From assembly GCA_038867695.1 (NCBI GenBank), contig JAWBXT010000001.1, positions 169 to 64,168 on the forward strand: 64,000 nucleotides of DNA, read 5' to 3'. The notes beneath the pieces are model-generated. The model was not told where the DNA came from. It did not search any database and saw nothing but the letters and a program-made list of their open reading frames with translations. This document shows positions 46,891-50,736 of the stretch, piece after piece. Each line of letters starts with the position of its first letter. Within the stretch, counting starts at the first letter, position 1. Both the position numbers and the translations under genes were made by a program. Source of the DNA: Thermoproteota archaeon (GTDB taxonomy: Archaea > Thermoproteota > EX4484-205 > JAAOZP01).

Positions 46891-49800
46891 ATGAGTCAAG
46901 AAGTTGAGATAAAGCAGATAGATTCGATAAAGTTTGGAGTACTGTCTCCCGCTGAGATCAGGAGACTCTCCGTAATGGAAATAACGACTGACGAGACATA
47001 TGATCAAGATGGGCTCTCAGTTCCCGGCGGAATAATGGATACACGTCTAGGCACTATAGAGCCCAGGCAGAGATGCAAGACTTGCGGCAACCTGCCTGAT
47101 AAATGCCCAGGACACTTCGGCCACATAGAACTACCTGTTCCAGTAATACATGTTTCATTCGCACGGGAAATTGAGCGCGTTTTACAATCTACTTGCAGAC
47201 AGTGTGGCAGAATCCTCCTGCCAAACGATAGAATAAGCCATTACAAAGAGAAGATGAGGGAGTATGAGGATCTCTATGGTATCGTACCAGAACAAATCTT
47301 CGATCAGATAAAGGATGAAGTTAGGAGGGCTAACAGGTGTCCACACTGCGGTGCTGAGAAATACCAGATAAAGCTTGAAAGACCTACGAAATTCTATGAG
47401 AGAGATCCGGAGGGGGCTCTCAGACTATTAAACTCTCGGATAATAAGAGAGCGTTTAAACTCGATCCCCGATGAAGACCTTAGGCTCCTAAACATAGATC
47501 CGGAGGTCGCTCATCCTGCATGGTACGTTATAGAAGTTCTTCCGGTTCCGCCAATTCAGGTAAGACCCTCGATAATACTTGAAACTGGAGAAAGGTCTGA
47601 AGACGATCTGACCCATAAGCTTGTCGACATAATAAGGACGGCGCGCAGGATAAGGGAATACATAGAGTCCGGGGCATCCCCACTAATAATACAAGATCAT
47701 GAGGATCTTCTGCAATATCACGTAACAACATATTTCGACAACGAAGCTGTTGGAATACTCCCAGCTCAGCATAGGACCCGCAAGACACTTAGGACGCTTG
47801 CACAGAGGCTGAAGGGTAAGGAGGGGCGTTTCCGGAAAAACCTTTCTGGAAAGAGAGTTGACTTCTCCGCCAGGACAGTAATATCTCCTGACCCCTATCT
47901 CGACATCGATGAGGTTGGAGTCCCCGTGGAGGTTGCTAAGATACTCACAGTGCCTGATAGAGTTACTTACTGGAACAGGGACTGGTTAATGCAGCTCGTC
48001 AGAAACGGACCGTTCACTCACCCCGGCTCAGAATATATAATTAGACCTACTGGTGCTAAGCATAAGCTCCAGTTCGTTGAGAATAGGGAAGCACTGGCTG
48101 AAGCACTCGATGTAGGCTTCATTGTCGAAAGACACTTACTTGATGGGGATTTCGTTATTTTCAACAGGCAGCCCTCGCTTCACCGCCTCTCAATGCTCGG
48201 GCATAGAGTAAGAGTTCTTCCCGGGAAGACCTTCAGACTGAACCCCAGCGTCTGTCCGCCCTATAACGCTGACTTCGACGGGGATGAAATGAACCTCCAT
48301 GTTCCACAGAGCATCGAGGCCTCTGTAGAAACAAGTATGTTGTTAGGAGTCAAAAACCATTACCTTACTCCGAGGTATGGCGCACCGATAATGGGAGCTA
48401 TAAGAGATTTCATAACAGGGGCCTACCTCCTAACTAGAAAAGACACCTATCTCACTAAGGAAGAGTTTACGAGAATATTGTATGCTGCAGGTTATGAGGG
48501 GGATCTCCCAGAGCCCGAGGTTAAAACGCCAGAACCCCTATGGTCAGGCAGGCAGGCGGTCAGTCTTCTGCTCAGGAGAGACTTCAACTACGTTGGCAAA
48601 ACCAGTGTAGGAAGTACAGCAAGCAAAGAGGAGGCGGAAATAGTAATAAAGAACGGTAAAATAATATCTGGAGTTATCGATAAGGCTTCAATAGGCGCTG
48701 AGAAAGCGGATACAATCCTACATAGGATAATAAAGAAGTACGGGCTTGAGGAGGGCCATAGATTCCTATCCTCGTTCGAGAAAATGGTTAGGGAGTTTAT
48801 TCTATTAAGAGGCTTTAGCTTCAGTTACCGGGATGTAGAACTGCCTAGAGACGTTCAGGAGCGAGTTGAAAGGGAGGTAGATCAGGCGGATATTGAGGTG
48901 GAGAAACTGCTTGAAGACTGGAAGAGAGGCAGGATAAAGAGAATTCCAGGTATGAGTGAAGAAGAAAGCCTGGAGGCTTACATAATGGATGCTCTTTCAA
49001 ATGTTAGGAGTAAAGTAGGTAGCCTCGTTTCATCGTCACTAGGAATGGATAACAGCATGGTTGTTATGACCAAGACGGGGGCAAGGGGCTCGGACCTTAA
49101 CGTTGGTCAAATATCCGGTTGTCTAGGGCAGCAGGCTTTAAGGGGCAAGAGAATCTTCAAAGGATATTTTGAGAGGCCTCTACCCCATTTCCATAGGGGG
49201 GACCTAGGCCCGCTTGCAAGAGGATTCATAAAATCCAATTATTACCAAGGCCTTTCACCCATAGAGCTTTTCTACCACTCCATGAGCGGGCGGGAGTCTC
49301 TTGTTGATACTGCAGTCAGGACTCAGCAGAGCGGATATCTACAGCGCAGGCTGATACATGCCCTAGAATCTCTCAGGGTAGAGTACGATGGAACCGTAAG
49401 AGACTCCTACGGCAATATTATCGACATAATATACGGTGAAGACGGTGTAGACCCTTCAAAGAGCGACCATGGGAAGTCTGTCGACGCCTTCAGGATAGTG
49501 GAGGAATACTCATTATCTTTGCCGAAGAAGGGAAATCCAGCGAGTAAACAGGCTGTTAAGAAGATGATTGAAGAGCACGGCAGGATACTCCCAACCAGCA
49601 TCAAGAAGGAGGCTTTCCACGCTATAGTCTCTAAGCGTCTCCCAGCATCAGCCGCTAGGAAAGTTGTGGAGAGAATAGTTGAAGAGTATAAGAGGGCGCT
49701 CGTGGAAGCCGGCGAGAGCGTTGGAATCGTCGCAGCACAATCCATAGGAGAACCTGGGACTCAGATGACCCTCAGAACTTTTCACTACGCTGGTGTCAGA

Positions 49801-50736
49801 GAGGCGAACGTAACTCTAGGGTTACCGAGGCTTATCGAACTTCTTGATGCTAGGAAGACGCCGAAGACGCCGATGATGACCGTCTATCTAAAAAGCCCCT
49901 ATAACAAGGATTATAGCAGGGCACTTAGAGTCGCTAGGAAGATGGTTTATACGACAATCGAGGACGTTGCCAGAATAGGGTTGAAATCAACTACTGCGCA
50001 TGATTACCTCGTCATACACCCTGTTAAAGAATGGTTGGCAGAAAGAGGGCTTTCTGAAGACGATATACAAAAAGTACTTAAGGCACTGAACCTGAAGTTT
50101 AACGTTAAAAGCGACGGCAGCTTTGAAATACCCATTAGAAACGACTCGCAGAAACTCGAGACTAAGATAAGGAAGACTCCCGTGAGTGGCATAACTGGAG
50201 TCAAGGGGGTTCTCTTAAAGGAGGAGAATAATGAATACTGTATAATAACAGAGGGGAGCAATCTATTGGAGGCCTTCAATATTCCTGAGGTGGATTACAC
50301 CAAGACTATAAGCAACGATATCCATGAAATCGCTGAAGTACTTGGCATAGAGGCGGCAAGAGCAGCCTTAATAAACGAGATGTGGAAGACTCTGAATGAA
50401 CAGGGCTTGGACGTTGATTGGAGACATCTCTCACTCGTTGCGAGTGCAATGACCCAAGATGGAACTGTGAAGCAGATAGGCAGACACGGGGTAAGTGGAA
50501 GCAAACAGAGTATTCTGGCTAAAGCCGCTTTCGAGAGGGCTGTTCAAGTCCTCGTTGAGGGGGCTGTAGCAGGGATGGAGGATAAGCTACTCGGTATGAC
50601 TGAGAGAGTTCTCGCAGGCTCGGAAATTTACGCTGGAACAGGGATGGTCAAGGTATATGTTGATATAGGAGGTTTTACGAGGGGCAGGGAGGGTGCTGAG
50701 GATGTCCGAGAAAACTTCGTTAAGCAGCAGGCTTGA
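46891..50736 (+). CDS. rpoA: DNA-directed RNA polymerase subunit A, apparently fused A' + A'' (1281 aa, single ORF)
   Basis: N-terminal Zn motifs, [10 protein letters not shown] catalytic loop, YGEDGVDP (A' C-terminal region), then in the same frame MIEEHG...[22 protein letters not shown] (trigger-loop start of A''). There is no intervening stop. Confidence 0.85.
   Translation: [1281 protein letters not shown]

Follow-up and report, generated by a model that had tools for sequence, protein, structure and literature searches.

The stretch of DNA analysed here (the window: 64,000 nucleotides (nt) of contig JAWBXT010000001.1 of the Thermoproteota archaeon assembly GCA_038867695.1) contains rpoA, the gene for the largest subunit of RNA polymerase (RNAP). 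In split lineages this subunit is encoded as two polypeptides, A' and A'', while in the window it is encoded by a single open reading frame (ORF). We are highly confident that this is the ordinary, lineage-typical unsplit rpoA of the Brockarchaeota, specifying one polypeptide of 1281 amino acids (aa), and that it is neither an error nor a recent event nor a new kind of gene. The unsplit state of rpoA here is already known, and GenBank already contains the identical sequence. The gene and its parts are as follows.

46891 to 50736, forward strand: rpoA, unsplit "A-type" largest RNAP subunit, a single ORF with Rpb1 domains 1-5 and both the A' and A'' NCBIfam models.
46891 to 49530, forward strand: A'-equivalent part of rpoA (aa 1 to ~880, ~100 kDa), delimited by TIGR02390 and by the A' ends of split lineages.
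aa 62-75, 102-106 and 150-154, forward strand: Zn motifs of rpoA (Zn-binding Cys/His clusters), from motif coordinates.
48265 to 48294 (aa 459-468), forward strand: catalytic motif of rpoA (10 residues), from motif coordinates.
aa 800-826, forward strand: bridge helix of rpoA, from motif coordinates.
49531 to 50733, forward strand: A''-equivalent part of rpoA (aa ~881-1281, ~44 kDa), delimited by TIGR02389 and by the A'' chains in the PDB, which align from aa 886-887 on.
49732 to 49797 (aa 948-969), forward strand: trigger loop of rpoA, from motif coordinates.

The ORF list and the translation agree that the frame opens with ATG, extends over 1281 aa to one terminal TGA and has zero internal stops; the uninterrupted fused A'+A'' frame noted in the preliminary description is thus borne out, also by the domain models. 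The calculated mass of the product is 144.4 kDa, and the chance of an open frame of 1281 codons, given the base composition of the gene, is ~3e-33. All five Pfam Rpb1 domains lie in canonical order within the one ORF (PF04997, PF00623, PF04983, PF05000 and PF04998; E 1e-30 to 1e-87), and the two NCBIfam equivalogs follow each other along it, that of A' (TIGR02390) matching aa 8-869 with 1226 bits and that of A'' (TIGR02389) matching aa 899-1257 with 413.5 bits. The residues of the catalytic motif, the Zn clusters, the bridge helix and the trigger loop are invariant in our alignment (A1). By its domains, its motifs and its position in the operon the protein belongs to the largest subunits of archaeal/eukaryotic-type RNAP (RpoA/Rpo1, the Rpb1 homologue). 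It is of the unsplit "A-type", being encoded by one ORF without a stop or a change of frame, conserved in its lineage and grouping with the unsplit members of the TACK archaea (Thaumarchaeota, Aigarchaeota, Crenarchaeota and Korarchaeota).

The lineage of the genome is Brockarchaeota (order EX4484-205 of GTDB, within the TACK/Thermoproteota), the identity of this order with Brockarchaeota being documented in PMC11094006. The exact protein of the window is found in NCBI on 4 independent contigs (MEM1557081.1, MEM2351009.1, MEM2487026.1 and MEM2607650.1). A whole-database protein search returned six 90%-identity clusters at 86-93% identity, named Candidatus Brockarchaeota or Thermoproteota archaeon, all of 1279-1282 aa; every one of the best 120 hits listed has a length of 1269-1291 aa, and the next hits, at 52-59% identity, are assigned to Bathyarchaeia or Nitrososphaerota where named. 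The same operon with an uninterrupted rpoA also occurs in 3 other Brockarchaeota-type metagenome-assembled genomes (MAGs; GCA_017601345.1, GCA_017601395.1 and GCA_052743655.1) and in two independent Logan assemblies of raw runs. The normal split was thus looked for in orthologs from the same lineage, and close relatives, re-assemblies and public copies are all unsplit; the stop that the preliminary description expected ahead of the ATG at the junction in orthologs is present in none of the Brockarchaeota-type relatives compared, in which the frame is open.

The wider distribution of the trait was examined in a scan of one genome per GTDB species with a 14-sequence alignment, which gave at least 80 loci from named genomes. 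Scoring was done at the DNA level, a locus being called fused when the catalytic motif and the trigger loop fall in one stop-free segment; four loci were incomplete, three of these because the contig ends within rpoA. Among the matches listed, every scorable locus of Bathyarchaeia, Nitrososphaeria/Thaumarchaeota, Aigarchaeota and Geothermarchaeota is fused, as is one locus of Heimdallarchaeota, and split genes are found in Hadarchaeota, Methanosarcinales, Woesearchaeota, Thermoproteia (Tiamatella, Desulfurococcales and Thermoprotei), Methanomethylicales, Culexmicrobium and Nezhaarchaeota. In a neighbour-joining tree (1232 columns, 200 bootstraps, simple distance correction) all fused TACK lineages in the sample, which did not include Korarchaeota, form one clade with 96% bootstrap support. 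The window falls inside a Brockarchaeota group with 100% support, the nearest relatives of which are the clusters P0007-P0017 (57-59% identity, all fused).

One contig in this tree deserves separate mention. The fused rpoA of JBLNCY010000047.1 (locus L065), labelled Methanocella sp. MAG113, is nested in the Bathyarchaeia, and this contig is probably mis-binned or mislabelled.

The preliminary description had treated a fused subunit A as exceptional for an archaeon. This premise is wrong for the present lineage, since the unsplit gene is the published norm in Thaumarchaeota, Aigarchaeota, Korarchaeota and Bathyarchaeota (PMC3082918, PMC5484517, PMC4084955, PMC3852633). Unsplit RpoA has been in the literature since ~2008-2011 for Thaumarchaeota, Aigarchaeota and Korarchaeota, and later also for Bathyarchaeota and some Asgard archaea. 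In Table 1 of Nunoura et al. (2011; PMC3082918) RpoA is entered as "fusion" for Ca. Caldiarchaeum, Thaumarchaeota and Korarchaeota and as "split" for Crenarchaeota and Euryarchaeota. An A-type, with fused genes in Thaumarchaea and Bathyarchaea, was distinguished from an A'A''-type by Da Cunha et al. (2017), who also discussed the single-split scenario (PMC5484517), while for Gerd-/Heimdallarchaeota fused RpoA has been listed as a eukaryotic signature (bioRxiv 10.1101/858530). The Brockarchaeota branch basal to Aigarchaeota and Thaumarchaeota (PMC8065059) and, given this placement beside fused lineages, a fused rpoA is exactly what would be predicted for them; the paper describing the phylum makes no mention of RNA polymerase or rpoA (PMC8065059).

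How the unsplit state of these lineages arose is a question of origin only, and here an alternative to the retention of an ancestral unsplit gene has to be taken seriously. The unsplit rpoA of Bathyarchaeia, Aigarchaeota, Thaumarchaeota and Brockarchaeota may be an ancient secondary fusion of an ancestrally split gene, a scenario to which we would give somewhat less than an even chance. Split genes occur in Euryarchaeota, in DPANN (Diapherotrites, Parvarchaeota, Aenigmarchaeota, Nanoarchaeota and Nanohaloarchaeota), and in Hadarchaeota, Thermoproteia, Methanomethylicia and Nezhaarchaeota, i.e., on both sides of most proposed archaeal roots, and a secondary fusion has been reported for Pacearchaeota (PMC5484517). 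The junctions of split loci, as seen within L047-L080 of our scan, are of two types. In Euryarchaeota, Hadarchaeota and DPANN/Woesearchaeota the ATG of A'' follows the stop of A' after 0-3 codons in one and the same frame, so that interconversion of the split and fused states needs only one or two point changes and a single substitution suffices for fusion. In the second type, that of Thermoproteia (including Desulfurococcales and Thermoprotei), Methanomethylicia/Methanomethylicales and Nezhaarchaeota, the frame of A'' differs from that of A', and the two often overlap at an ATGA. These two architectures may be informative on a single versus a multiple origin of the split; the euryarchaeal (in frame) and crenarchaeal (ATGA overlap, other frame) types fit more than one split event, which argues against secondary fusion, as do the unsplit state of bacteria and eukaryotes at this position and the view of Da Cunha et al. 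that a single split took place after Thaumarchaeota and Korarchaeota had diverged (PMC5484517). A further proposal, drawn from the single clade of fused TACK lineages and the two junction types, namely that rpoA was split more than once, or was fused once in the common ancestor of Bathyarchaeia, Aigarchaeota, Thaumarchaeota and Brockarchaeota, with the Brockarchaeota adding an independent, deep-branching unsplit lineage, is put forward tentatively and we consider it rather doubtful.

Whatever its ultimate origin, the unsplit gene is an old possession of the group. In the codon alignment there are 0 indels over aa 860-930 among Brockarchaeota relatives. Between the window and its relative L081, 1 replacement stands against 11 synonymous differences in aa 878-900, the values for the whole gene being pS 0.64 and pN 0.038, and in deeper pairs of relatives the synonymous sites are saturated. 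Purifying selection thus acts through the junction of rpoA. Saturated synonymous sites, few replacements and no indels together imply that the junction has been read in frame for a very long time, throughout the diversification of the group, and such long in-frame translation excludes both an assembly artefact and a recent loss of a stop codon. The latter, a secondary fusion from a split ancestor confined to a species or genus, would be simple with a junction like that of Euryarchaeota, Hadarchaeota and DPANN, where the ATG shares the frame of the stop and is 0-3 codons away from it, because a single point mutation could then fuse A' and A''. However, the fused state extends down to 49-59% identity across several classes forming one clade, the linker is gap-free, of the same length and alignable from Brockarchaeota to Bathyarchaeia, and the Brockarchaeota members, saturated at synonymous sites, all read through, and we therefore regard recent stop loss as very improbable.

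The position at which other archaea divide the protein can be located on that of the window, where two further features are relevant.

49519 to 49545 (aa 877-885), forward strand: loop LPKKGNPAS, an in-frame linker; split lineages have the A' stop, a Shine-Dalgarno (SD) motif and the A'' start here.
49564 to 49566, forward strand: codon ATG, encoding Met892 (the "junction Met"), which lies within the chain and does not serve as a start.

For 15 split loci, A' terminates at positions equivalent to aa 873-882 of the window protein and A'' begins at positions equivalent to aa 875-890, with one exception, Culexmicrobium, for which the called A'' start maps to aa 896; this call is doubtful and the real start is probably an upstream TTG. 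PDB sequences give the same picture: the A' of Saccharolobus (880 aa) ends at ~aa 878 and its A'' begins at ~aa 880, and the A'' of T. kodakarensis and P. furiosus begins at ~aa 883. All 15 split loci have the stop of A' at this loop (aa 873-885), and the window has no stop in frame there. Two details given in the preliminary description hold, namely the codons AAG AAG ATG without a stop (49558-49566) and the distance of 56 aa from the Met, which is Met892, to AAQSIGEPG. Its statement that this Met sits exactly where A'' normally initiates is correct as far as proximity to the split point goes; the word "exactly" does not apply, Met892 lying ~2-17 residues downstream of the A'' starts of split lineages. 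Residue 5 of the P. furiosus A'' aligns to aa 887, which makes Met892 the equivalent of Leu10 inside A'', and in the 15 split loci the trigger loop comes 58-78 aa after the A'' Met, as against 56 aa after Met892 in the window.

An AlphaFold2 (AF2) model of aa 701-1281 predicts a helix at 866-876, a loop at 877-885 and a second helix at 886-896 that contains Met892, with a predicted local distance difference test score (pLDDT) of 76-88 over aa 871-930 and of 76-87 in the loop. The ends of the fragment are disordered since the partners are missing, and we relied on the model solely for the secondary structure close to the junction. Together with the mapping of the split loci, this helix-loop-helix places the canonical split in the short loop between the helices, and Met892 would accordingly be an ordinary residue in the middle of a helix. 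Close relatives have M, I, L or T at its position, and Bathyarchaeia have K, R, Q and other, charged or polar residues. The 22 nt before the ATG at 49564 contain no SD-like motif, in contrast to rpoB, rpoA, L30e and NusA, which all have one, and to most split lineages, in which the last codons of A' include a GGAGGTG-like SD; a ribosome-binding motif and a conserved A'' start codon are thus both absent. The closeness of Met892 to the split point is coincidental, and the significance attached to it earlier is not borne out.

These observations also bear on the idea of dual expression, in which, in addition to the full-length chain, a separate A'' would be made from an internal start at Met892, or the linker would be cleaved after translation, to give a functionally split enzyme. 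An in-frame ATG within ~10 residues of the canonical A'' start and a linker loop predicted between two helices are what such a scheme would call for. Nevertheless, the missing SD-like motif, the replacement of the Met among relatives and its predicted mid-helix position all speak against it, as do the lack of a known protease site or intein and a length equal to that of A' plus A'', and we consider it highly unlikely. On the opposite strand, an ORF of 112 aa (49407-49745) spans the junction without supporting evidence; most likely it arose by chance opposite a gene that is rich in purines and highly constrained.

The weakest alternative, that an assembly or sequencing error erased a real stop or frameshift between A' and A'', can appeal to the general expectation that MAG contigs hold errors and to a 1-nt homopolymer deletion in the rpoA of a relative (GCA_033582015.1), though this lies at aa ~752 and not at the junction, but is scarcely credible in view of the identical protein on 4 contigs, the same open frame in 3 NCBI MAGs, 2 Logan assemblies and 6 sequence clusters, the codon-wise and indel-free divergence of the junction, and the collinearity with split forms without any change of frame. 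Of the three explanations that the preliminary description had offered, genuine fusion is therefore the one upheld by the relatives and the re-assemblies; a recently lost stop codon and an assembly error are rejected.

The 90% cluster of the window itself holds four shorter entries labelled A' or A'' (P0129, P0130, P0132 and P0133), which were considered as possible splits and rejected. P0132 starts exactly at MIEEHG, but its contig of 2052 nt begins no more than 44 nt before this point, with the frame open as far as base 1, i.e., it is a truncated gene call; P0133 begins inside the trigger loop. P0129 and P0130 go back to the loss of one nt from a G-run at aa ~752, away from the junction, through which P0129 reads with Thr replacing Met. 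There are no genuine splits among the four, the short entries being truncations at contig ends or products of the homopolymer frameshift. This 1-nt loss is seen at L087:1273-5123 (GCA_033582015.1, labelled Nitrososphaerota archaeon), a Brockarchaeota-type rpoA interrupted either by a homopolymer error or as a pseudogene; its annotation as A' (771 aa) and A'' (540 aa) gives the semblance of a split, but in the wrong position.

Several points weigh against our interpretation of the gene as a lineage-typical unsplit rpoA. The tree is a neighbour-joining tree only, with a simple distance correction, and the structure of the linker comes from an AF2 fragment model of moderate quality (mean pLDDT 64). 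The lineage is assigned from the names that NCBI gives to near-identical proteins and from GCA accessions, and no Brockarchaeota species representative is among the matches listed in the scan of one genome per GTDB species. The case against an assembly error is built on concordant independent assemblies and not on raw reads of this assembly, and post-translational cleavage of the product would be compatible with the sequence evidence.

On our interpretation as an ordinary unsplit rpoA, the gene has one translation start, the SD-preceded ATG at 46891, and specifies a chain of 1281 aa collinear with the A' and A'' of split archaea. The loop at aa 877-885, probably a surface loop, is read through and would covalently join the last helix of A' to the first helix of A''. 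The resulting chain of 144.4 kDa would be expected to fold like the pair of ~100 and ~44 kDa, and probably stays a single chain in the cell, the linker having a structural role. The unsplit state came down by vertical descent from the ancestor that the members of the clade share.

As a discovery this has little weight, unsplit rpoA being a textbook signature of Thaumarchaeota, Aigarchaeota, Bathyarchaeota and Korarchaeota. It does extend the taxon sampling of the trait to the Brockarchaeota, consistent with their placement beside Aigarchaeota and Thaumarchaeota. The split or fused state has been used in the debates on the archaeal root and on the ancestry of eukaryotes, and its correct scoring in new phyla is of some value. 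Should multiple splits or one fusion prove to be true, the state could serve as a rare genomic change by which to root and order the TACK lineages. Annotation requires care in this respect: NCBI and JGI (Joint Genome Institute) call these proteins of 1281 aa "subunit A'" and truncated or frameshifted copies "A''", which can mislead automated surveys of split and fused genes.

The gene lies within a canonical archaeal transcription/ribosomal operon with the order rpoH-rpoB-rpoA-L30e-NusA-S12-S7, followed by the gene for inosine monophosphate dehydrogenase. The neighbours of rpoA in this operon are the following.

43263 to 43520, forward strand: rpoH (Rpb5 C-terminal domain), the first gene of the operon (Pfam PF01191, E = 9.5e-33).
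43525 to 46887, forward strand: rpoB, unsplit, 1120 aa (Pfam Rpb2 domains 1-7; NCBIfam NF006335, 1558 bits).
50702 to 51010, forward strand: ribosomal protein L30e gene (Pfam PF01248), overlapping the final 35 nt of rpoA.
51013 to 52547, forward strand: genes for a NusA-like KH protein, ribosomal protein S12 and ribosomal protein S7 (Pfam; gene order the same in relatives).

The position of rpoH is the same in the relatives L081, L083 and L084. SD-like motifs are found upstream of rpoB (GGAGGGG) and before the ATG of rpoA at 46891 (GAAGGTG). The start of L30e is most likely the ATG at 50702 (candidate region 50693-51010), giving 102 aa by our own count; relatives are called at 103 aa with an overlap of 38 nt. 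The SD of L30e (GGGAGGGTG) lies inside the coding sequence of rpoA, and the overlap of the two genes is kept in relatives, which suggests translational coupling of rpoA and L30e. Elsewhere in the window, a tRNA cluster occurs at 1458-2181, with Ala(TGC), His(GTG) and Thr(CGT). A 96-nt "tRNA-???" at 2086-2181 on the reverse strand, whose anticodon is called with 4 bases, probably represents an archaeal tRNA that contains an intron and was mis-parsed by ARAGORN.

Compared with known systems, the protein of the window is most like the unsplit RpoA of Nitrososphaeria, Aigarchaeota (Ca. Caldiarchaeum subterraneum) and Bathyarchaeia, with which it shares a single ORF of ~1265-1290 aa comprising A' and A'', a collinear and gap-free linker and membership of one clade in the neighbour-joining tree; the identity to these proteins is only 49-59%. 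For the unsplit RpoA of Korarchaeota, of which no sequence was sampled, the likeness comes from the literature alone. The split A'/A'' subunits (Rpo1N/Rpo1C) of Saccharolobus/Sulfolobus, Thermococcus kodakarensis and Pyrococcus furiosus (PDB 2PMZ, 2WAQ, 4QIW and 8CRO) match the window protein in their domains, catalytic motif, bridge helix and trigger loop and are collinear with it, A' ending at ~aa 878-887 and A'' starting at ~aa 880-883. Unlike the window, the genes of split archaea have a stop, an SD and a new start in the loop, resulting in polypeptides of ~880-910 aa and ~390 aa.

The RpoA of the Asgard Heimdall-/Gerdarchaeota is unsplit at the same position as that of the window (L079) but, for this heimdallarchaeotal sequence, falls outside the TACK fused clade in the tree. 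In the same locus (L079:797-6544, Heimdallarchaeota S146_22, WAPZ01000684.1) the trigger loop is interrupted by an intein-like insert of ~640 aa, bordered by GEPGTQM|SLPGTEK and IVTHN|TLKTFHYAGV, which results in a stop-free segment of 1916 codons. Eukaryotic Rpb1/RPA1/RPC1 likewise consist of one polypeptide through the junction region, and Rpb1 is strongly similar to the window protein on both sides of it (Rpb1 801-877 and 1035-1120). However, Rpb1 has ~157 residues (878-1034), which we take to be the foot-domain expansion, where the window protein has ~58 (aa 857-915), and its C-terminal heptad-repeat domain is absent from the window protein. The archaeal unsplit protein thus resembles Rpb1 in being unsplit and not in the inserted region.

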